Shown here piece by piece: positions 8,289 to 57,756 of a DNA stretch of 64,000 bases. The DNA lies in the NCBI GenBank assembly GCA_041664285.1, contig JBAYLA010000002.1, positions 1,349 to 65,348 on the forward strand. The letters run 5' to 3'. Below the pieces are notes generated by a model. The model had not been told where the DNA came from and did not search any database. It saw only the letters and a program-made list of their open reading frames with translations. The stretch is from Minisyncoccota bacterium. Lineage in GTDB: Bacteria > Patescibacteriota > Minisyncoccia > Phycocordibacterales > UBA9973. The position numbers were made by a program, and so were the translations under genes. Position 1 is the first letter of the stretch, and every line of letters begins with the position of its first letter.

Positions 8289-9062
8289 ATGTCCCTAATC
8301 CAAAAAAATTTAGATAAGAATAATTTACATCATGCATATTTAATAGAGGGCGAGAGGAGTGTAATCGTGAAAGAAATTGAAGAATTTTTAAAAAGTTTAG
8401 GAGTAAGCACCATTGGTAATCCTGACTTTATTCACATTCAATTAGACTCTTTTAAAATTGAAGATGCGAGGAATTTAAAATCCTATGCAAACCAAAAAAG
8501 TTTTTCCTTGGAGAAGAAAATTTTTATTATTTCTGCCAATAACTTTTTACTTGAGGCTCAGAATAGCTTATTGAAGATTTTTGAAGAACCAATAGAAAAT
8601 ACACACTTTTTCTTAATTGTGCCAGATGTCAATTCCCTTTTAAAAACTCTTGTTTCTAGATTTTATTTGATTTCTACAAAGCAAGATATTGGAGAGGTGA
8701 AAGAAGTAGAGAAATTTATTACTATGCCGTTAAAAAACAGAATTGATTTTATAAAAGAATTATTGACTACAGAAGACGAAGAAGATGAAGAAGGAAATGA
8801 AATTATTGTGCTAAATTCTACTCGTTCAAAGGCCTTAAGATTTTTAAATGCGCTAGAGTCTGTGTTATATAGCAAATTTATAAAGAATTTTTCTGGCTTT
8901 ACCCTTCCTGGAGTACCGGGTGGGACTTACGCCATTCAAAATTCTTTACAAATTTGCTTCCCTCATTTTTTTAAGGTTCGCGAATTTCTTCGGATGCCAG
9001 GGAGTTCTGTAAAAAGCTTGATGAAATCCGTAGCAATAGTAACACCAAATTTTAAAAATTAA
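8289..9062 (+). CDS. holB: DNA polymerase III delta-prime-like clamp-loader subunit (no P-loop)
   Basis: HAYLIEG and LLKIFEEP motifs typical of the delta-prime/AAA+ clamp loader; no Walker A, as in delta-prime. Confidence 0.6.
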   Translation: MSLIQKNLDKNNLHHAYLIEGERSVIVKEIEEFLKSLGVSTIGNPDFIHIQLDSFKIEDARNLKSYANQKSFSLEKKIFIISANNFLLEAQNSLLKIFEEPIENTHFFLIVPDVNSLLKTLVSRFYLISTKQDIGEVKEVEKFITMPLKNRIDFIKELLTTEDEEDEEGNEIIVLNSTRSKALRFLNALESVLYSKFIKNFSGFTLPGVPGGTYAIQNSLQICFPHFFKVREFLRMPGSSVKSLMKSVAIVTPNFKN

Positions 9063-9084
9063 TTTTTTGTGATATAGTAAATTT

Positions 9085-9636
9085 ATGCAATACAATTTTT
9101 CAAATTTTAAAGTAGAGCTTAAAAAAACAGAAGATTTCTTAGGCAAAGAATACACTCAGCTTAACATTGGACGAGCGTCACCCATGATCCTCGATGGTGT
9201 GTCTGTCGAATCATATGGTTCATATGTTCCATTAAAAAATGTAGCTTCTATTTCTATTGAAGACCCAAAAACATTACGCATTGCCCCTTGGGATAAATCT
9301 CAAATAAAAGCGATTGAAAAGGCTATTGTTGGTTCAAATTTAGGGTTGTCTGTGGCGACTGATGATTTAGGTATAAGAGTTATTTTTCCACAATTAACTA
9401 CCGAAACGAGGAAAACCTTGGTAAAAGTTTTAAAAGAAAAATTAGAAGAAAGTAGAATTATTGTGCGACGTCTTCGTGAAGCTGTGGTGGTTGAGATAGA
9501 GAAACAAGAAAAAGAAGGTAAAATGACCGAAGATGAAAGATTTCGCGCGAAAGAAGAATTACAGAAAATTATCACTGAAACAAATAGCAAACTAGAAGCA
9601 ATCTTTGAGAAAAAGGAGAGTGAAGTAATGGGATAG
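9085..9636 (+). CDS. frr: ribosome recycling factor
   Basis: 183 aa, conserved RRF pattern (RASPMILDGVSVESYG...LRIAPWDKS...EDERFRAKEELQKI). Confidence 0.85.
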   Translation: MQYNFSNFKVELKKTEDFLGKEYTQLNIGRASPMILDGVSVESYGSYVPLKNVASISIEDPKTLRIAPWDKSQIKAIEKAIVGSNLGLSVATDDLGIRVIFPQLTTETRKTLVKVLKEKLEESRIIVRRLREAVVVEIEKQEKEGKMTEDERFRAKEELQKIITETNSKLEAIFEKKESEVMG

Positions 9637-9641
9637 AAAAT

Positions 9642-10775
9642 ATGAGTATCGTAATTTTTATAATAATTCTATTAGTTCTCGTTCTAGTCCATGAGTTTGG
9701 GCATTTTTTTACCGCGAAGAGTTTTGGTATAAAGGTTGAGGAATTTGGTTTTGGTTTTCCGCCCAAGTTATTTAGTTTTAAAAAAGGGGAGACGGAATAC
9801 AGTTTTAATTTATTACCCTTAGGTGGATTTGTAAAAATTTTTGGAGAAACTGTTGATGAAGCTGATTTTGTAGAAGTGGGATTTTTAGATAAAAAAGAAA
9901 CTCCAGAAAAAGTTGAATTGGCGGAAAGAAGCCTGGCGAACAAGCCAAAATGGCAACAAGCCTTAGTACTTTTTGCTGGGATTTTCGCTAATTTTTTATT
10001 AGCTTGGCTTTTATTTTCTATTGGTTTTATGTCTGGATTTCCTACTTCGGTTGGAAGTGAGTCCGCCGGTTATAAATTAGAAAATATAAATTTAGTCATT
10101 GTTTCTGTTTTAGCCAAGTCTCCCGCTGAAAATGCTGGACTTAAGGCTGGTGATAAAATAATTAATATAAAAAGTGGTGATAATTTCACCACAAATATTA
10201 GTCCTGAAACTGTTAAATCTTTTGTTGTTGAAAATAGAGGAAAAGAAATTGATATTGGATATTTACGGGGGAAAAATTCTGAAGTAAATATTGCCAAAAT
10301 AAATCCTAAAGAAATTAACGGAGAACCTACCATTGGGATTTCTATGGATCAAATAGGAACAGCTAAATTGCCATTTTTTTCAGCAATTTGGCAGGGGTTG
10401 CGTTTAGACCTACTTATGACAAAAAGTACTGCCGTAGGGCTTTATACGCTTGTTTCTGAGGCCATAAAGGGTAAAGGAAGCCTTGCTACAGTTACAGGAC
10501 CTATCGGCATGGTGGGCATTGTCGGAGATGCCTATCAATTTGGCTTTGTTTACCTTTTGTCTTTTGCAGCACTTATTTCGATAAATCTTGCAATCATAAA
10601 TCTTATTCCATTTCCGGCTCTTGATGGTGGGCGACTTTTCTTTTTATTGATTGAAAAAATAAAAGGTTCTCGTATAAATCCAAAAGTTGCAAATACTATG
10701 AATATGATTGGTTTTTATCTCCTAATATTTCTAATGCTCTTCATTACTTATCGTGATGTTATTAAATTGTTTTAG
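9642..10775 (+). CDS. rseP: RIP zinc metalloprotease RseP (site-2 protease) with PDZ domain
   Basis: N-terminal TM plus HEFGH zinc motif, LPLGGFV, central PDZ-like segment, C-terminal LDGG motif. Confidence 0.85.
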   Translation: MSIVIFIIILLVLVLVHEFGHFFTAKSFGIKVEEFGFGFPPKLFSFKKGETEYSFNLLPLGGFVKIFGETVDEADFVEVGFLDKKETPEKVELAERSLANKPKWQQALVLFAGIFANFLLAWLLFSIGFMSGFPTSVGSESAGYKLENINLVIVSVLAKSPAENAGLKAGDKIINIKSGDNFTTNISPETVKSFVVENRGKEIDIGYLRGKNSEVNIAKINPKEINGEPTIGISMDQIGTAKLPFFSAIWQGLRLDLLMTKSTAVGLYTLVSEAIKGKGSLATVTGPIGMVGIVGDAYQFGFVYLLSFAALISINLAIINLIPFPALDGGRLFFLLIEKIKGSRINPKVANTMNMIGFYLLIFLMLFITYRDVIKLF

Positions 10776-10812: not shown

Positions 10813-12522
10813 ATGAACAGCGAAATTAAGAATTGTCAAAATTGTAAAAAGGATTTCACTATTGAACCAGAAGATTTTGATTTTTATGAAAAAATAAAAG
10901 TTCCTCCACCTACTTTTTGTCCAGACTGTAGGTTGATGAGACGTCTTTTATGGCGCAATGAACATTCATTATTTCGTAGTCCTAACGGAGAAAAAGGAAA
11001 ATCTAATTTAATTATATCTATCTATCATCCAGACTCTAAGCTAATATCTTACGATAAAGAAATGTGGTGGAGTGATAAATGGGATCCTTGTGATTATGGC
11101 ATAGGGTATGATTTTTCAAGGTCATTTTTTGAACAATTTAAAGAACTTCTAGAAAAAGTTCCACACTTAGCATTATCTAATTCAAATTCTATAAATTCTA
11201 GATTTTGCCAGACAGCAGTTGAGCTAAAAAATTGCTATTTGGTAGGTTCTAGTATGGCGTGTGAAGATTCTATGTATTGTAATCGTATCTTTCATTGTAA
11301 ATTTACACACGACTCTTATATTTGTTATTCTACAGAATTTGGTTATGACAATGTATATTGTCGTGAATCTAGTAAATTATTTTTTTCCAGAGAAAGCGAA
11401 AGTTGTTTGGACTCATATTTTCTTTATGATTGCAGAAATTGCTCTAGTTGTATTTTATGTACTAATTTAAGAAATAAAAGCTATTGCATAGAAAACATAC
11501 AATACAACAAAGAAGAATATATAAAAAAGAAAAAAGAACTTGCTTTAAATACTCGTTTTGGTATAGAAAAAGCAAGAATTAGATTTGAACAGTTATGGCG
11601 TGATGCATTTCATAAACATTTAAAACTTACTAATACTGTAAATGTTATTGGAGATCAAGTTAAAGATTCTCGTAACTGCTACTACGTTTTTGACCTAGAA
11701 GGAGAAGCGGAAAATGTAAAATATGCTCACTGGGGCTCTAAGGGAACACGTGATTCTTATGACGTTGGACCTGGATGTGGCAATAATGCTGAGCTTCTTT
11801 ATGAAGGTATAAGTACTGGAGTGCAGAACAGTCGAGCTTTTTTTAACGCTGTAGTTTGGTATTCCAATAATATTTATTATAGTTATATGCTAAACAATTG
11901 CCAAAATTGTTTCGGTTGTGCTGAAATGAATAGCAAGCAGTATTGTATTCTAAACAGACAATATACAAAAAAAGAATATGAAAATTTAATGCCAAAGATA
12001 GTTGAACAGATGAAAAATGTTCCTTATATAGACAAAAAAGGCAATATATATAGTTTTGGAGAATTTTTCCCTCCAGAAATATCCCCATTTACTTATAATG
12101 AAACAGTAGCACAGGATTATTTTCCATTAGACAAAAGAAGAGCTGAGGCGGAGGGGTATTCTTGGCGAGAATATCAACCTAGTTCTTATCAAATTACCAT
12201 CAATGGGCAAGATTTACCTCAAGCTATTTCCGAGGTAAATGATTCAATCTTAAATGAGGTTATTGAATGCGAAATTACTAAAAAACCTTTTAAAATTCTT
12301 GAGCAAGAGTTGAGTTTTTATCGAAGACTTGATTTACCACTTCCATCAATTCATCCTGACGAAAGGCACAACAGAAGATTAAAACTTCGCAATCCGATGG
12401 TTTTAAATAAAAGGATGTGCTTCTTTGGAGATGAAGAAGTTCTGACAACTTATTTACCAGAATCTAAAGGTGGTCCGAAAAAAGTAGTATGTACAAAACA
12501 TTACAATCAAGAGATTTATTAA
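10813..12522 (+). CDS. large cysteine-rich protein of unknown function (paralog A, 569 aa; N- and C-terminal zinc-ribbon-like CxxC pairs and many internal CxxC/NC..C motifs)
   Basis: uninterrupted ORF; clear paralog of 56026..57756 (shared blocks CQNCKK.F.I..EDF.FYEKIKV.PPTFCP.CR..RR, YDFS.SFFEQF, CR.C..C.LC.NLRNK..C, NC..C..CFGC, VIEC....KK.F....E.L.YLR). Confidence 0.8.
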   Translation: MNSEIKNCQNCKKDFTIEPEDFDFYEKIKVPPPTFCPDCRLMRRLLWRNEHSLFRSPNGEKGKSNLIISIYHPDSKLISYDKEMWWSDKWDPCDYGIGYDFSRSFFEQFKELLEKVPHLALSNSNSINSRFCQTAVELKNCYLVGSSMACEDSMYCNRIFHCKFTHDSYICYSTEFGYDNVYCRESSKLFFSRESESCLDSYFLYDCRNCSSCILCTNLRNKSYCIENIQYNKEEYIKKKKELALNTRFGIEKARIRFEQLWRDAFHKHLKLTNTVNVIGDQVKDSRNCYYVFDLEGEAENVKYAHWGSKGTRDSYDVGPGCGNNAELLYEGISTGVQNSRAFFNAVVWYSNNIYYSYMLNNCQNCFGCAEMNSKQYCILNRQYTKKEYENLMPKIVEQMKNVPYIDKKGNIYSFGEFFPPEISPFTYNETVAQDYFPLDKRRAEAEGYSWREYQPSSYQITINGQDLPQAISEVNDSILNEVIECEITKKPFKILEQELSFYRRLDLPLPSIHPDERHNRRLKLRNPMVLNKRMCFFGDEEVLTTYLPESKGGPKKVVCTKHYNQEIY

Positions 12523-12528
12523 AAAATT

Positions 12529-13260
12529 ATGAAAACAAAATTAATTCATGAAATCAGGGCGGTAAAGAATAAGAAAGAACTTGTTAATATTATTAGAGCA
12601 CAGAGGATAAGTGAAAAAGTATTAAAAGAAGTACTTAGTAAATTAAAAACAGGCATAACAGAAATTGAAATTGCAAATTTTATTAAAAAATCTTTTGTAA
12701 AGTACGGTATGCATATATTATCTTTTACCCCCATTGTTTCTTTTGGTAAAAATACCGCGAATGTTCATCATGAGCCCAGTAAAACTAAATTAAAGAAAGG
12801 GGACATAATAATGCTTGATTTTGGCTGTACGGTGAACCATTTTTGTTCAGACATGACAAGGACATATTTCTGGGGCGAGCCATCAGAAAAAGGAAAGCGA
12901 ATTTATTTAGCTGTTTTAAAAGCTCAAGAACTTGCTTTAAATAAAATAAAAAATGGTGAACGCAGAGCGAAGACAATAGATAAAGTAGCAAGAGATTTTT
13001 TAAATAAGAAATATAGAAATAAATTCTTACATGGGCTTGGTCATGGGGTTGGTACTGTGATTCACGAATGGCCGAATTTTAAACCAAAGAGCAAAGACAT
13101 TGTTCCAGTGGGGTGTGTGATGACCGTAGAGCCCGGTTTGTATTTAAAAGGTTTTGGTGGTGTGCGAATCGAAGATATGGTTTTAATTACCAAGAATGGC
13201 TGTAAGAATTTAACAAATTTCCCCAAAGATCTTAAAAGTGCCATACTTCCAATTAAATAA
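12529..13260 (+). CDS. M24-family metallopeptidase, catalytic domain only (Xaa-Pro / methionine aminopeptidase-like)
   Basis: pita-bread motifs HGLGHGVGTVIHEWP and GGVRIEDMVLIT; 243 aa. Confidence 0.7.
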   Translation: MKTKLIHEIRAVKNKKELVNIIRAQRISEKVLKEVLSKLKTGITEIEIANFIKKSFVKYGMHILSFTPIVSFGKNTANVHHEPSKTKLKKGDIIMLDFGCTVNHFCSDMTRTYFWGEPSEKGKRIYLAVLKAQELALNKIKNGERRAKTIDKVARDFLNKKYRNKFLHGLGHGVGTVIHEWPNFKPKSKDIVPVGCVMTVEPGLYLKGFGGVRIEDMVLITKNGCKNLTNFPKDLKSAILPIK

Positions 13261-13356: not shown

Positions 13357-15774
13357 ATGTCTGTTAAAACCACTAAAAACAAGATAAGTGTTGCGGTGCT
13401 CTGTGGAGGTCCTTCACTTGAGCGTGGAATATCACTTAACTCTGCAAGAAGTGTGCTCGATCATCTAGGTAGCCAAGGTGTAGGAATTATTCCAATTTAT
13501 TTTAATGAACAAAAAAAGCCTTATAAGATTTCTACCGCTCAACTTTATTCCAACAATCCTTCTGATTTTGATTTTAAATTAAATAAATCTAGTAAAGAGC
13601 TTTCAGAATCAGAGCTTATAAAAATTTTAAAAAGTGTTAGCATTACTTTTCCGTGTATTCATGGAGCATTTGGTGAGGATGGAGAAATACAAAGTTTTCT
13701 AGAAAAACACAGCATTCCTTTTGTCGGATCCAACTCAGTGTCCTGCAAAAAAGCCTTTGATAAATTTAAAGCAAATGAATATATTAGATCTCTCGGATTT
13801 TACGCTCCACAATCTATTTTATTGAAAATTACCGATAGTGAAAAAGAAATTAGAAAAAAAGTACAAGATTTTTGGAAAAATCAAAAAATAACTCGTGCGA
13901 TAGTAAAGCCTGCTTCCGGAGGGTCAAGTATTGGTGTATTTTCTGTTAATAAAGCAAGTGAAGCCATAGAAAGTATTAAAACTTTATTTAGTAAACGGAT
14001 GGATACACGCGTGGTCATCGAACCCTTTATTCAAGGTAAGGAATTCACGGTTATTATTTTACAGAATAGATTTAATATGCCGGTAGCAATTTTGCCGACT
14101 GAAATGGAAATGGATTATGACAAGCATCAATTTTTTGATTTTCGTAAAAAATATTTACCGACACGTCAAGTTACTTATCATTGCCCTCCACGATTTCCAA
14201 ATGAAATAATAGAAAAAATACAAATAGAAGCTGAGCAATTGTTTTCTGTTTTTGGAATGCAAGATTTTGCTCGTTTTGATGGATTTCTTTTACCCGACGG
14301 TAATGTTTGGTTTTGTGACTTTAATCCAATTTCTGGAATGGAACAGAATAGTTTCTTGTTTCAGCAGTCATCTCGAATTGGTCTTTCCCATCAGGACCTT
14401 TTACGTTTTATCATCAACAACGCTTGTTTGCGTAGGAATATACCAGTAGTAATTGAAAATGTCTTTTCCGACAAAAAACTTGTCCGCCGTGGTGGGCGAA
14501 AACCGCTTGCTGTACTTTTTGGTGGTGAAACTGCAGAAAAACAAGTTTCACTGATGAGTGGTACCAATGTTTGGCTGAAATTACGAGGATCTACAGTTTA
14601 CAAACCACGTCCATTTCTTCTGGTTGGGAAAAAAGAAGTTTGGGAACTTCCTTATTCTTACATCTTAAATCATACAGTTGAAGAAATAATAGAAAATGCA
14701 GAAAAAGCTCCACGAGACAGTGAGAGATTATTTTTTCTAATTGAAAAAGTAAAAATGAGATTATTCCTACAAAAATCAGATGCTACTGAGGATTTCTTTA
14801 TGCCGAAAAAGCATACCCTGGATAAAATTTTGAAACAATATTCAAATATATTTTTAGCTCTTCATGGTGGAGTGGGTGAAGACGGAACGATTCAAAGAAT
14901 TTTAGAAAAAAATAAAATTAAATACAATGGTTCGGATAGTCTTACTTCAAAATTATGTATAGATAAATGGCTAACTAGTGAAATGATCTTGCAAGCAAAT
15001 ATAAAAGGTGTCAGTGTTGCTCCGCATGTTTTATTAAAAATTAAGGATTTTTCTAAATTATCTGACGATAAAATTAAAGAAGCTTACTGGGCCATGCTTC
15101 TTAAAACACTTGGAACAAAAACAATTATTGCGAAGCCCAGAAGTGATGGTTGTTCGGCTGGAGTGGTGAGGCTTTTTAATAAAAAAGATTTATCCACTTA
15201 CATTTCTTTTGTAAAAAATAAATACACAGTTGCACCCTTGGGTACCTTTACTAGTCAGCGTGGCATTACCCAAATGCCTGAAGGAGAGGTAGCGGATATT
15301 ATTTTTGAATCTTTTATAGAGACTGATAAGTTAAAAATTAGTGGAGATAAAATTTCTCATATTCGAAAAAGTGGTTATGTGGAGATGACGGTGGGAGTGA
15401 TAGAAGACAAAGGTCACCTTAGGGCACTATCTCCAAGTATTACTGTGGCAGAAGAAACGGTTTTGAGTGTTGAAGAAAAATTCCAAGGTGGTACTGGTGT
15501 CAATATTACCCCTCCTCCTAAGGAAATTATTTCCATGAAAAATGTGAATAAGGTGAAAAAATCTATTGAGTTAGTAGCTAAAAAAATTGGGATTCGTGGA
15601 TACGCAAGAATTGATATTTTTGTTCAAATTAAAACTGGTGATATTATTATTATTGAAATAAATACTCTCCCTGGGCTTACTCCTTCGACGGTTATTTATC
15701 ACCAAGCTTTAGCTGAAAAAGAGCCGATGTCCCCAATAAAATTTTTGGAACTTATAACTGAAAACAAAAAATAA
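13357..15774 (+). CDS. ddl: tandem fusion of two D-alanine--D-alanine ligase (ATP-grasp) modules, 805 aa
   Basis: two successive Ddl-like units, each with an N-terminal motif (ISVAVLCGGPSLERGISLNSA / LAVLFGGETAEKQVSLMSG), a central ATP-grasp segment (AIVKPASGGSSIGV / IIAKPRSDGCSAGV) and a C-terminal motif (FARFDGF...CDFNPISG / ARIDIFV...EINTLPGLTP). Confidence 0.75.
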   Translation: MSVKTTKNKISVAVLCGGPSLERGISLNSARSVLDHLGSQGVGIIPIYFNEQKKPYKISTAQLYSNNPSDFDFKLNKSSKELSESELIKILKSVSITFPCIHGAFGEDGEIQSFLEKHSIPFVGSNSVSCKKAFDKFKANEYIRSLGFYAPQSILLKITDSEKEIRKKVQDFWKNQKITRAIVKPASGGSSIGVFSVNKASEAIESIKTLFSKRMDTRVVIEPFIQGKEFTVIILQNRFNMPVAILPTEMEMDYDKHQFFDFRKKYLPTRQVTYHCPPRFPNEIIEKIQIEAEQLFSVFGMQDFARFDGFLLPDGNVWFCDFNPISGMEQNSFLFQQSSRIGLSHQDLLRFIINNACLRRNIPVVIENVFSDKKLVRRGGRKPLAVLFGGETAEKQVSLMSGTNVWLKLRGSTVYKPRPFLLVGKKEVWELPYSYILNHTVEEIIENAEKAPRDSERLFFLIEKVKMRLFLQKSDATEDFFMPKKHTLDKILKQYSNIFLALHGGVGEDGTIQRILEKNKIKYNGSDSLTSKLCIDKWLTSEMILQANIKGVSVAPHVLLKIKDFSKLSDDKIKEAYWAMLLKTLGTKTIIAKPRSDGCSAGVVRLFNKKDLSTYISFVKNKYTVAPLGTFTSQRGITQMPEGEVADIIFESFIETDKLKISGDKISHIRKSGYVEMTVGVIEDKGHLRALSPSITVAEETVLSVEEKFQGGTGVNITPPPKEIISMKNVNKVKKSIELVAKKIGIRGYARIDIFVQIKTGDIIIIEINTLPGLTPSTVIYHQALAEKEPMSPIKFLELITENKK

Positions 15775-17120: not shown

Positions 17121-17151
17121 GAAATACCCCTTAAGGGGATTTCTTTTTTTG
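17121..17151 (+). terminator. rho-independent terminator after rpmG (GAAATACCCC-TTAA-GGGGATTTC followed by T7)
   Basis: GC-containing hairpin with one bulge, then TTTTTTT on the + strand. Confidence 0.6.
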
Positions 17152-18240
17152 TTATTTCTATGGTATTTTATAAATATGGTGAAAGAAAGTATTTCTTTCA
17201 ATTCTAATAGAATTGAAATATCTAAATTAAGGGCAGCTTTGTTGAAAGCTGAAGCTAAAGGGGACGAAGAGGCAGTTCTCGCCCTAGAAGCAGAGTTGAG
17301 AGCTCTTGAAAAAGGGGAAGTTTTTAATCGTGAACAATTTTTACTTGAAAGAGCCGAAGTTGAAAAATCAAAACAGCCAATTACAAAAAACAATAAACAT
17401 AATATTTTAAAAGAAATGCAAGATCTTTCAAAATCGGATAAGATAGAAGCAGATAGTTGGACATATGATGGAATACATGAATATGATCCAGGAAAATATT
17501 CTAAAGATAAATCTTATGAAAATACTTTTAGAGGTATTTTAGACAAAATGCATTGCGTAAGTTTTACAGAGTTAGTTAAAAATAAATCTTTAGAGTTAGG
17601 TAGAAAAATTGAAGTAATGGATTTATTTGGCGGAGCTTATTTTTTAAGTGACTTAGAAAATGTTTCTAGAATAATAGGAGTTCGCACTAGAAATATTGAT
17701 GAAATACTTCTACAAGATTTAAAAGAAAGTAAACTACTGAATCTTGAGAAAATTCTCCCAGAAGAATTTAAAGGATTAGATATTAGAATTAATGATTATA
17801 TTAAAAAAGTTAGTGAACTAATGAATGACAAAAAACGATTAATAATAGAGGGTAATTTGTATAAAGGAAAAACATGGAAAAAATTAACTAAGTATAGTAA
17901 ATTAGGAGAGAATCATGGTTTTGATCTTATTGTTTGTAGACCACAAGGAGTTTTCAATGGAATATCAAGTGCTAAAAATATTACAAACATAGATAATAAA
18001 GAGTTCCACAAAGAAGAAATTTTTCTTTCTCTACTTGAAAGAACTTTAAAATTATTGTCTCCTGATGGTGGTGTATTTTTTACACAACTTCCTAATTTTG
18101 ATACAAAAGATGATATTTTAAACAATTTTATGTATGAATACATAAAAAAGAAAGAAAAAGAGGGGTATGAATTTTTAAGTGGTAAAGATGGTACATCAGA
18201 AGGAAATAAGGTCATAGCATTTAAAAGAATAAAAAACTAA
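17149..18240 (+). CDS. hypothetical protein; coiled-coil N-terminus and a C-terminal region reminiscent of a Rossmann methyltransferase, with DPPY replaced by CRPQ (probable start ATG 17176)
   Basis: VMDLFGGAY (motif I-like), FDLIVCRPQG (motif IV position), LLSPDGGVFFTQLP; weak, fold-level only. Confidence 0.4.
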   Translation: MLFLWYFINMVKESISFNSNRIEISKLRAALLKAEAKGDEEAVLALEAELRALEKGEVFNREQFLLERAEVEKSKQPITKNNKHNILKEMQDLSKSDKIEADSWTYDGIHEYDPGKYSKDKSYENTFRGILDKMHCVSFTELVKNKSLELGRKIEVMDLFGGAYFLSDLENVSRIIGVRTRNIDEILLQDLKESKLLNLEKILPEEFKGLDIRINDYIKKVSELMNDKKRLIIEGNLYKGKTWKKLTKYSKLGENHGFDLIVCRPQGVFNGISSAKNITNIDNKEFHKEEIFLSLLERTLKLLSPDGGVFFTQLPNFDTKDDILNNFMYEYIKKKEKEGYEFLSGKDGTSEGNKVIAFKRIKN

Positions 18241-56025: not shown

Positions 56026-57756
56026 ATGAAAGAAGAAATAAAAACACAATCTACGATATGCCAGAATTGCAAAAAGAACTTTGCCATAGACGTGGAAGAT
56101 TTTAATTTTTATGAAAAAATAAAAGTTTCACCACCTACTTTTTGTCCGGAATGCAGAATGCAAAGACGATTTGGCTATAGAAACGAACGTACTCTTTATC
56201 GTCGTAAGTGTGCCTTAACTGGTAAAGATGTTATTTCTTGCTTTGCGCCAGAAGTCCCTTTTAAAGTTATTGATCGTGATTTATGGTGGGGAGATAATTG
56301 GAACGAACTTGAAAGTGGTCGTGATTATGATTTTTCTAAATCATTTTTTGAACAATTTCATAAGCTTATGCAAGAAACTTACATGCCTGCACTTTTTATC
56401 GGCAAATGCGTGAATACAAAATATGGCAATCATATTGGCGAATTTAAAAATGCTTATCTTGTTTCTGCTTCGTGGATGGGAGAAGACATAATGTATGCTT
56501 CTCGTTGTAATTCTTGTAAAAATTCACTTGATATGTTCTCAACTTTTGAATGTCAGTTTTGTTATGGAGATATAGCTTGTATAAAATGCAACACCGTCTA
56601 TTTTTCAGAATACGCAACAGCTTGTTCGAGTTCAGCATTCCTTTATAATTGTCGTGGATGTATGGACTGTTTTTTGTGTTCAAATTTACGAAATAAACAA
56701 AATTGTTTTATGAACGAACAACTTTCTAAAGAGGAGTATAAAAAGCGTTTAGAAGAATACGAAATTGGTACTTGGTCTGGACTACAAAAAGCAAAAAATG
56801 CTTTCGAAAATCTAAAAAAAGAAACGATAAGGCGTTATGCGATAGTAATAAACTCTCAAAATGTGACTGGTGACAATATCACCAATGCCTTTAATCTTAA
56901 ACAATGTTTTGACGTAGCTAATCATATAAAAGATTGTTGTTATATTACAAACTCTCTTGATCGAGTTGAAGATTGTTATGATGGGCATGGTTTGGCTTCT
57001 ATTACCACCGGTCTAGAAATGATTGATACAGGAGACGAAGCTGGGCGTTGTTTCTTTGTGGCGACGGTGTGGGGAAGTCAAGATATGTGGTATTCATATA
57101 ATTGTCACAGCTGTAATAATTGTTTTGGTTGTGTGTGTTTAAAGAAAAAGTCTTATTGTGTTTTTAATAAACAATATTCAAAAGAAGAATATTTAATTTT
57201 AAAAGACAAAATTATTGAACAAATGAAAAAAGTACCTTTTATCGATAAAAAAGGGCGTATACATTCTTTCGGTGATTATTTTCCTGTAGAGCTTTCACCC
57301 TTTGCATATAATAAAACTATTGCCCAAGATTATTTTCCTAAGAGTAAAGAGGAAATAGAAAAAGAAGGTTGGTTTTTTGCAGAAATGAAACAAAGTGAAT
57401 ATACTATAACAAAACGTGAAAAAGATATTCCCGATTCAATTAATGATATTCAGGATTCTTTTGTTAACGAAGTTATTGAATGTACAATGTGTAAAAAAGC
57501 TTTTCGGGTAATGGAAAATGAACTTATTTATTTACGTAAGTTTGGTATTGCTGTTCCACGTTATTGTTTTGAGTGCCGCCACTTAGAAAGATTTTCAATG
57601 GTGAATTTACCAAGACTGTACCATAGACAATGTATGTGCGATAAGGAAAATCATAATCATGATGGAAATTGTATTAATAAATTTGAAACAAGCTACGCAC
57701 CCGATCGACCAGAGATAGTGTATTGTGAAAAATGTTACCAACAAGAAGTTTACTAG
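56026..57756 (+). CDS. large cysteine-rich protein of unknown function (paralog B, 576 aa), inserted between purL and purQ
   Basis: paralog of 10813..12522 (see there); no signal peptide. Confidence 0.8.
   Translation: MKEEIKTQSTICQNCKKNFAIDVEDFNFYEKIKVSPPTFCPECRMQRRFGYRNERTLYRRKCALTGKDVISCFAPEVPFKVIDRDLWWGDNWNELESGRDYDFSKSFFEQFHKLMQETYMPALFIGKCVNTKYGNHIGEFKNAYLVSASWMGEDIMYASRCNSCKNSLDMFSTFECQFCYGDIACIKCNTVYFSEYATACSSSAFLYNCRGCMDCFLCSNLRNKQNCFMNEQLSKEEYKKRLEEYEIGTWSGLQKAKNAFENLKKETIRRYAIVINSQNVTGDNITNAFNLKQCFDVANHIKDCCYITNSLDRVEDCYDGHGLASITTGLEMIDTGDEAGRCFFVATVWGSQDMWYSYNCHSCNNCFGCVCLKKKSYCVFNKQYSKEEYLILKDKIIEQMKKVPFIDKKGRIHSFGDYFPVELSPFAYNKTIAQDYFPKSKEEIEKEGWFFAEMKQSEYTITKREKDIPDSINDIQDSFVNEVIECTMCKKAFRVMENELIYLRKFGIAVPRYCFECRHLERFSMVNLPRLYHRQCMCDKENHNHDGNCINKFETSYAPDRPEIVYCEKCYQQEVY

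Follow-up and report, generated by a model that had tools for sequence, protein, structure and literature searches.

Two paralogous genes of an unnamed Paceibacteria protein family with terminal zinc-finger-like modules and predicted 12-residue beta-helices

The two genes and their family

We analysed a 64,000-nucleotide stretch of a Minisyncoccota bacterium genome (GenBank assembly GCA_041664285.1, contig JBAYLA010000002.1, positions 1,349 to 65,348; hereafter the window), which has a G+C content of 33% and carries two related, cysteine-rich open reading frames (ORFs), termed copy A and copy B. Copy A lies between the genes for an M50 site-2 protease and an M24 peptidase, with mreB (three genes away), a DNA polymerase III delta-prime-like (holB-type) gene and frr upstream and a double ddl and alr downstream. 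Copy B lies within a purine operon. Both belong to an unnamed, very large family restricted to Paceibacteria, found almost only in metagenome-assembled genomes (MAGs) of Patescibacteria, and their products are predicted from coevolution and a structural model to form a hairpin of two antiparallel beta-helices closed by a zinc-finger-bearing head. The two ORFs, with lengths in amino acids (aa), are as follows.

10813..12522, + strand: copy A, whole ORF, 569 aa, 27 Cys
56026..57756, + strand: copy B, whole ORF, 576 aa, 39 Cys, between purL and purQ

Both ORFs had been delimited at these coordinates, and proposed as paralogues, in a first-pass annotation of the DNA made from the sequence alone. 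BLASTP aligned their products end to end with 41% identity and 59% positives (E 5e-155), which upheld the proposed homology over the whole length; judged from sequence comparison, A and B are real genes and old, anciently diverged paralogues. Synonymous sites between them were saturated, so that dN/dS carries no information, and tblastn found no third copy in the window. The shared sequence blocks listed in the annotation were present and the chains ended in QEIY and QEVY, as described there, except that the block NC..C..CFGC has all four cysteines only in copy B (copy A reads NNCQNCFGC). The statement that each protein holds several dozen cysteines, mostly as CxxC, proved too generous: Cys content was 4.7% in copy A, with 5 CxxC motifs, and 6.8% in copy B, with 12. 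Both proteins are aromatic-rich, with an overall isoelectric point (pI) of about 6.4 and the linker described below as the sole strongly basic region. As annotated, neither contains a hydrophobic or transmembrane segment (maximum 19-residue Kyte-Doolittle means of 0.59 and 0.81 for A and B, respectively).

Copy A was 100% identical to a protein labelled 'Candidatus Paceibacterota bacterium' by NCBI. The sequence of copy B itself was absent from the matches of the large protein search, in which its best match was 82% identical. In the European Nucleotide Archive sample ERZ27249449, whose assembly is more fragmented than the source of the window, copy B was found on a 35.7-kb contig and copy A on a separate 69.9-kb contig.

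The annotation had placed the proteins in no recognisable family, and database searches bore this out, with no significant Pfam, NCBIfam or PDB match by sequence or fold. Pfam and NCBIfam returned nothing significant for A and B, and Pfam gave only sub-threshold finger matches for 43 aligned members. The best match of a 43-sequence profile among PDB sequences had an E value of 1.3, and the best Foldseek match in the PDB one of 2.7. PADLOC gave no match for A or B, IMG/VR viral contigs held no relative, and PHROGs yielded only a weak match to phrog_15341, of function not known (E 1.2e-4); this single PHROGs entry was thus the only match among the anti-phage and phage families searched. A search of the literature turned up neither an account of the family nor one of the Pfam finger names zf_Tbcl and zf_Tbcl_2 discussed below. 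Families enriched in Parcubacteria are mostly hypothetical according to a preprint.

The annotation had also argued for a real, selected family, and the number of relatives agrees with this: more than 7,000 database matches, in about 5,000 clusters at 50% identity. A and B each had thousands of relatives in a collection of 5.8 billion proteins, all of them labelled 'hypothetical' and none with a Pfam domain. A profile search of 1.84 billion cluster representatives (50% identity) recovered 5,026 clusters at E <= 1e-3, of which 2,221 reached E <= 1e-30; lengths among the best 150 of the 5,026 ranged from 444 to 625 aa, and most of these 150 covered the whole profile. Among GTDB species genomes, at least 594 loci were confirmed. 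The best 80 of these were nearly all from MAGs labelled Patescibacteria, mostly of Paceibacteria type, and included Nomura-, Staskawicz-, Lipton-, Giovannoni-, Sungii- and Jorgensenbacteria, Paceibacterota and Minisyncoccia. Many MAG loci carried the label 'uncultured Candidatus Saccharibacteria', which we suspect to be generic. Two loci had labels from outside the candidate phyla radiation (CPR): a 268 kb contig labelled 'Burkholderiales' (L040, JAMPXW010000002.1), with three copies, an ATPase gene and dnaJ, and a 1.8 kb contig labelled 'Bacteroidales' (L042), on which the family is also represented. Both labels probably reflect binning contamination, and for L040 mis-binning is likelier than transfer because its array resembles those of Paceibacteria loci.

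Architecture of the chain

Along the chain, the parts follow in the order ZnR1 (the N-terminal ribbon), finger 1b, cap X, central module M1, a helical linker, central module M2, a long helix with cap Y, ZnR2 (the C-terminal ribbon) and a tail finger. Their positions in copy A are listed first and those in copy B second, all on the + strand.

10822..10983, + strand: copy A, ZnR1 treble-clef-like finger with basic helix; C8, C11, C36, C39; the only intact terminal metal site in A
10984..11181, + strand: copy A, degenerate second finger and cap X; WWSDxWDPxxYGxxYDFSxxFFEQF; coevolution of 101/103 with 396/399
11182..11502, + strand: copy A, predicted beta-helix M1; about 8.5 turns of 12 residues, [C/S/L]-x-[N/D/G/Y] triplets; ends in C207/C210/C213/C216
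11503..11628, + strand: copy A, helical linker; model helices 233-243 and 248-264; coevolution with the last M1 turns
11629..11964, + strand: copy A, predicted beta-helix M2; homologous to M1; couplings at separation 12-13
11965..12252, + strand: copy A, predicted long helix and cap Y; GEFFPxEISPFxYNETxAQDYFP; most conserved non-finger part; coevolution with the ZnR1 helix
12253..12519, + strand: copy A, degenerate C-terminal finger pair; ZnR2 C489, C514 and C517 replaced by T, H and E; tail keeps only C536 and C560
56047..56208, + strand: copy B, ZnR1; C12, C15, C40, C43
56209..56400, + strand: copy B, degenerate second finger and cap X; only C62 kept
56401..56721, + strand: copy B, predicted beta-helix M1; 13/13 Cys in one 3-residue register; 4-Cys turn C209/C212/C215/C218
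56722..56850, + strand: copy B, helical linker, model-based
56851..57177, + strand: copy B, predicted beta-helix M2; full 4-Cys turn C360/C363/C366/C369
57178..57465, + strand: copy B, helix and cap Y, from conservation and coevolution
57466..57630, + strand: copy B, ZnR2, intact treble-clef-like C-terminal finger; C486, C489, C514, C517; 489-517 and 489-514 co-vary
57631..57753, + strand: copy B, intact tail finger of a zf_Tbcl_2-like type; C536/C538, C549, C567, C570

Profile comparison with hhalign matched the N-terminal end (residues 3-57) to the C-terminal ribbon (481-535) with 99% probability (E 5.5e-18), and M1 (about residues 133-239) to M2 (about 281-392) with 99.7% probability (E 4.3e-25). 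On these alignments the chain is the product of two internal duplications, the two ends being homologous to each other, as are the two central modules.

To describe the central modules, we examined the cysteine columns in an alignment of 170 sequences and performed mean-field direct coupling analysis (DCA) on 543 sequences (about 457 effective). The first-pass annotation had read the cysteines as clusters with a period of 20-25 residues. This was not borne out: the cysteines keep strictly to a 3-residue register, on which a 12-residue super-period is imposed. All M1 columns with at least 10% Cys fell in one register modulo 3, and most of them were 10-60% Cys, alternating with Ser, Leu, Val, Thr and Asn. 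In the larger alignment, 5,966 of 6,073 M1 cysteines (98.2%) occupied one register, as did all 13 of the 13 M1 cysteines in each of A and B (chance about 2e-6 per copy), and the M1 consensus consisted of 33 unbroken [C/S/L]-x-[N/D/G/Y] triplets. Profile autocorrelation rose above zero only at multiples of 3 and peaked at 12, 24 and 36; control regions gave nothing. Of the 150 strongest DCA couplings, 33 lay at a separation of exactly 12, tiling positions 127-229; M2 couplings lay at 12-13, with several at 6. Register, autocorrelation and couplings at 12 together point to a solenoid with a 12-residue turn, whose narrow core is lined by each third residue, a Cys, a Ser or a small hydrophobic. 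A first guess of 15 residues per turn, taken from hydrophobic spacing, was replaced by 12 on the evidence of autocorrelation and coevolution. Within M1, the inward register was the most conserved, and the outward registers were rich in Tyr, Phe, Glu, Asn and Asp, not in Thr. The reading of the central modules as tight 12-residue-per-turn beta-helices is predicted from these patterns, with the triplet register and turn length reasonably well supported.

Since the central cysteines are swapped with Ser, Leu, Val and Thr and couple from i to i+12, most of them are probably inward core residues and not metal ligands. This sets aside one part of the proposal that the proteins consist of repeated zinc-knuckle or iron-sulfur (Fe-S) modules with flanking zinc ribbons: the ends are zinc-ribbon-like (treble-clef-like), and the central repeats are not of that kind. 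The last M1 turn (C209/C212/C215/C218, copy B numbering) was 83-98% Cys per position and may hold a metal or cross-core bonds. Copy B also has the corresponding M2 turn complete, as do no more than about 10% of family members (CCCCC in 57 of 543 sequences).

At the chain ends, the four ZnR1 cysteines were kept in 519 of 543 family sequences. Finger 1b (C62/C65/C83/C86, copy B numbering) was intact in 134 of 543 and in neither A nor B, and the tail finger (C536/C538, C549, C567 and C570, same numbering) was intact in B and in most members. Ligand pairs within the fingers co-varied strongly (65-86, 65-83, 489-517, 489-514 and 549-570), and ligands were kept or lost largely as sets, the exceptions being finger 1b, which usually retains C62, and the A-type ZnR2, which retains C486. 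The co-variation and the joint retention or loss of ligands are what structural zinc sites would be expected to show. An AlphaFold2 model (predicted template-modelling score 0.82; predicted local distance difference test score 79.5) placed strands 4-7 and 14-17 on either side of C8/C11 and began helix 37-45 at C36/C39, a layout repeated at 483-523. By sequence and model, the terminal fingers look like treble clefs, with a zinc knuckle on a beta-hairpin and the second CxxC at a helix N-terminus. The true metal sites are probably these terminal fingers and perhaps one 4-Cys turn. The basic helices that follow the two ribbons were nearly invariant (CRxxRRxxxRNE and CRHxxRLxxRN).

The fingers were compared with two Pfam families, zf_Tbcl (PF13451) and zf_Tbcl_2 (PF23477), which are probable treble-clef zinc fingers of function not known. 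ZnR1 and ZnR2 aligned to positions 4-44 of the 48 in zf_Tbcl, with the two CxxC pairs alike, and the second finger and tail aligned to zf_Tbcl_2. The N-terminal segment of the family consensus scored 16.6 bits (E 0.0075) against PF13451, below the gathering threshold of 24 bits; matches at E <= 0.1 occurred in 15 of 43 members (best E 8.4e-5), with none for A or B. Against PF23477, the consensus scored 20.2 bits (E 4.8e-4), below the threshold of 27 bits, and the tail of one member (P0091) gave E 0.017. In hhalign against the PF23477 finger of an ATPase encoded near family genes, probabilities were 96.6% for the second finger and 77.8% for the tail, a partly circular comparison because the segments had been picked with one shared Cys pattern. 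The family fingers differ from zf_Tbcl and zf_Tbcl_2 in being terminal modules of a 570-aa protein, the bulk of which has no Pfam model.

Copy A has lost three of the four fingers, a feature of its subfamily. Relatives in this subfamily were 66-77% identical, after which identity dropped to 54%, and cysteine ligands have been lost from their second N-terminal finger, C-terminal ribbon and tail finger, with the surrounding sequence kept. The subfamily shows the ZnR2 pattern C-HE, present in 64 of the 543 sequences and with T489 in copy A, and the tail pattern CFGCH.

The DCA contacts also linked distant parts of the chain. The ZnR1 helix was coupled both to cap Y (47-417, 50-421, 58-430 and 74-452) and to ZnR2 (55-515 and 42-530), and cap X to the helix after M2 (101-396 and 103-399). 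A further coupling joined the first part of M1 to the last part of M2 (120-358), and the last M1 turns contacted the linker helices. Because of these couplings, we infer that the chain is a hairpin of two antiparallel beta-helices, M1 and M2, joined by the helical linker, with both termini in one head made up of caps X and Y and up to four putative treble-clef fingers. The head was more conserved than the helix surfaces (column entropy 1.4-1.8 versus 2.2-2.5 bits). The family itself and its duplications, finger sites, triplet register, 12-residue turn and head contacts are reasonably well supported.

The closest structural analogue would be a beta-helix of the Tenebrio type. The Tenebrio molitor antifreeze protein (PDB 1EZG) has the 12-residue repeat TCTxSxxCxxAx and resembles the central modules in its 12 residues per turn, in the small core-facing residue at every third position and in its richness in Cys. 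The family differs from it in having no detectable sequence relationship to it, no Pfam match and no Thr-x-Thr ice-binding face, in carrying two modules per chain with caps and zinc fingers, and in being bacterial and apparently cytoplasmic, so that disulfides are unlikely; its cysteines are also not fixed as pairs. An antifreeze function was rejected since there is no Thr face. Other beta-solenoids, namely curlin CsgA, bactofilin, left-handed hexapeptide beta-helices and pentapeptide-repeat proteins, have about 18-23 residues per turn against the 12 found here; the family has no sequence or Pfam match to them, both of its ends appear capped and, unlike curlin, it has no secretion signal.

Gene neighbourhoods

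To place the genes in context, we compared 82 related 14-kb loci, a set whose members are phylogenetically related. These held 189 family ORFs, with at least 2 copies in 55 of the 82 loci and a maximum of 7, nearly always on the same strand and separated by a median gap of 31 bp. The annotation had set both copies in housekeeping contexts, which is true of their neighbours in the window; elsewhere the genes stand in tandem arrays beside VirD4-like ATPase genes and dnaK/dnaJ.

The commonest neighbour encoded a soluble P-loop ATPase that matched TrwB_AAD_bind, T4SS-DNA_transf, DUF87 and TraG-D_C above Pfam thresholds. It was found within 6 kb in 33 of 82 loci (47 ORFs). In 23 loci its gene immediately neighbours a family gene on the same strand; the gaps there run from -50 to 244 bp and mostly stay below about 105 bp. 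Two forms were distinguished. The long form, of about 610-800 aa, has a genuine zf_Tbcl_2 finger (E 4e-14) as well as an extended low-complexity tail, and its gene usually precedes the array. The short form has about 485-510 aa and is encoded on the downstream side, beside dnaJ. ORFs of the two forms in two example loci are as follows.

L001, 4146..6122 and 11086..12588: ATPase ORFs
L088, 2829..4958 and 8887..10401: ATPase ORFs

The ATPase genes split the usual dnaK-dnaJ neighbourhood, giving a recurrent block of (grpE) dnaK .. long ATPase, family array, short ATPase, dnaJ, membrane protein, .. cysS. DnaJ was encoded in 16 loci and DnaK in 10, and 38 of the 82 loci had a gene for the ATPase, DnaJ or DnaK. 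A survey counted 5,713 VirD4-like homologues in 2,918 Patescibacteria genomes, only 148 of them near virB4, so that most are orphans (PMC12102498).

The nearest relatives of copy A (P0003 and P0008; 73-76% identical) and of copy B (P0121, 82%; P0129, 56%) alike lie in grpE/dnaK/ATPase/dnaJ loci, not in the contexts seen in the window. The slot after the M50 protease gene recurred in three loci (L055, L060 and L078) and the slot between purL and purQ in two (L059 and L068). In these recurring slots, the family genes were 38-43% identical to A or B and the flanking genes 59-91% identical, with 74% identity between L059 and L068. This suggests that copies are exchanged among a few slots, whether one paralogue replaces another or the genes are swapped like cassettes. 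We considered and rejected an involvement in purine synthesis, as the slot between purL and purQ was occupied in only two related genomes, by a copy 39-40% identical to B, and the nearest relatives of B lie elsewhere.

Genes for CutA1 (divalent-ion tolerance) were interspersed in 5 arrays (L017, L021, L033, L038 and L080), and small ArsR-family helix-turn-helix (HTH) genes in at least 3 (L001 9771..10043, L002, L059, L088 6721..6993). This interspersion may point to metal-linked regulation.

Candidate roles and other genes of the window

We tentatively favour a reading in which the family members are soluble, non-enzymatic, zinc-stabilised scaffolds or adaptors, although it falls somewhat short of an even chance. 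The conserved head would dock onto a common partner, for which the likeliest candidate is the adjacent soluble VirD4/TrwB-like ATPase, one form of which bears a finger of the kind present in the family. Each paralogue would owe a binding specificity of its own to the outer faces of its beta-helices, which are more variable. In the genome of the window, both copies would have moved out of the ATPase locus, and copy A would have lost three fingers while keeping the residues that define the fold.

Several observations weigh against this scaffold reading. The ATPase is a candidate partner by adjacency only, the window contains no VirD4-like ATPase, dnaK or dnaJ gene, 49 of the 82 loci have no ATPase gene within 6 kb, and the loci share ancestry. 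The strong conservation of the X and Y motifs makes a catalytic role possible. On the structural side, the DCA drew on only about 460 effective sequences, the finger-to-finger hhalign scores depend in part on the one pattern used to choose the segments, and the zf_Tbcl and zf_Tbcl_2 matches lie below Pfam thresholds.

Two rival explanations turn on the ATPase neighbours. In one, which we consider unlikely, the paralogues are effectors handed by VirD4-like coupling ATPases to a channel, possibly for delivery to the hosts of these episymbionts, with DnaK, DnaJ and GrpE keeping them export-competent. Direct adjacency to VirD4/TrwB/TraG-like ATPases, the orphan state of most VirD4-like homologues (PMC12102498), the diverged, multi-copy tandem arrays and the divergence of copies within slots whose flanks are well conserved would all fit such cargo. 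Like substrates and adaptors of type IV coupling proteins (VirD4/TraG/TrwB), the family genes adjoin such ATPases on the same strand with short gaps; the likeness is one of context. As read from their sequences, the neighbouring ATPases are without a membrane anchor at the N-terminus. None of the loci had recognisable virB4 or channel genes, and there is neither a relaxase nor an export signal that could be recognised. Instead of disordered signals the family has folded zinc fingers at its termini, unfolding a tight zinc-bound beta-helix for export would be difficult, and the strongly conserved head and stable subfamilies (66-77% in the A type) speak for purifying selection rather than an arms race. 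An improbable alternative is that the fingers and basic helices bind DNA or RNA together with a motor of the FtsK/HerA/VirD4 type in DNA uptake, segregation or processing. The near-invariant basic helices after both ribbons, the DNA translocases among the relatives of the neighbouring ATPase and an HhH-GPD-like gene in one array (a sub-threshold match) are consistent with it. However, the ZnR1 basic helix contacts Y and ZnR2 (47-417, 50-421 and 55-515), so that its conserved Arg, Asn and Glu may be buried; at an overall pI of about 6.4, the linker is the only strongly basic region, and the copy A subfamily is well conserved despite the loss of three fingers. Mimicry of DNA was rejected because the modules are not strongly acidic.

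The cysteines themselves, 16-47 per protein with a median of 33, raise the further explanation that the ladder binds several Zn or Fe-S clusters for redox chemistry, electron transfer or metal storage and buffering. The strongly conserved CxxCxxCxxC turn of M1, the second such turn in copy B and the CutA1 and ArsR-family genes in arrays are in line with this idea, which we nevertheless regard as very unlikely. Apart from the 4-Cys turn, Cys makes up 10-69% of each central column, with Ser, Leu, Val and Thr as its substitutes; few central Cys positions outside the 4-Cys turns are common to A and B, and the M2 turn is seldom complete. We found no CxxCxxCxxxCP motif and no Fer4-type Pfam match at E <= 1, and couplings from i to i+12 are more readily explained by a stacked core than by metal sites. 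Nor do aromatic-rich proteins of 569 and 576 aa with 4.7-6.8% Cys resemble metallothioneins, which are small, have few aromatic residues and contain about 15-30% Cys. It is very improbable indeed that the beta-helix rods stack into filaments, as bactofilins or curli subunits do, with paralogues hetero-polymerising. Several conserved paralogues per genome and the position of copy A downstream of mreB would suit a cytoskeletal polymer, but both ends of the beta-helices appear capped by X, Y and the linker, which would block open-ended stacking; no bactofilin Pfam match was obtained, and the mreB neighbourhood was seen in only 3 of 82 loci (L055, L060 and L078).

Carried further, the scaffold reading leads to a bolder version that we hold doubtful: the family would be the missing partner of the orphan VirD4-like ATPases, forming with the Hsp70 genes a lineage-specific, ATP-driven machine in which interchangeable finger-capped beta-helices act as cargo or as adaptors, perhaps where symbiont and host meet. 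The fold, taken separately, would be a natural counterpart, in the cytoplasm of prokaryotes, to the 12-residue Cys-laddered beta-helix of insect antifreeze proteins. Treble-clef fingers and beta-solenoids are known kinds of part. In the libraries and literature searched, we did not find described the combination of these fold parts, a 12-residue Cys/Ser ladder in an apparently cytoplasmic bacterial protein, how large and how restricted in lineage the family is, its arrays and the ATPase/Hsp70 link. Some Paceibacteria, whose genomes measure roughly 1 Mb at most, have at least 6-7 copies of the gene; at 1.7 kb each, these take up over 1% of the genome. The analysis offers a concrete architecture and corrects the Fe-S/zinc-knuckle reading, and a pair of capped 12-residue beta-helices held by putative treble-clef fingers would be of interest to structural biologists and protein designers. 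Gene context connects the family with the orphan VirD4-like ATPases of Patescibacteria and with the chaperone operon; if this link is true, the family would provide a way into part of the cell biology of episymbiotic bacteria.

Other genes of the window were recorded as well. Three ORFs had no Pfam match at E <= 1e-5; two of them lie inside or next to the purine operon, and the 195-aa ORF showed a weak Acetyltransf_3 match. CPR bacteria are usually described as having no nucleotide biosynthesis; the window contains a de novo purine operon, in which purL encodes a 970-aa protein with a long N-terminal extension. Downstream of copy A, an ORF encodes a fused tandem Ddl, with the Dala_Dala_lig_N and Dala_Dala_lig_C domains each matched twice and the alanine racemase gene after it.

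17149..18240, + strand: ORF of 363 aa
52466..53053, + strand: ORF of 195 aa
60709..61449, + strand: ORF of 246 aa
53063..63476, + strand: purine de novo operon, in the order purL, copy B, purQ, purF, purN, 246-aa ORF, alpha/beta hydrolase, purD
13357..15774, + strand: fused tandem Ddl, 805 aa

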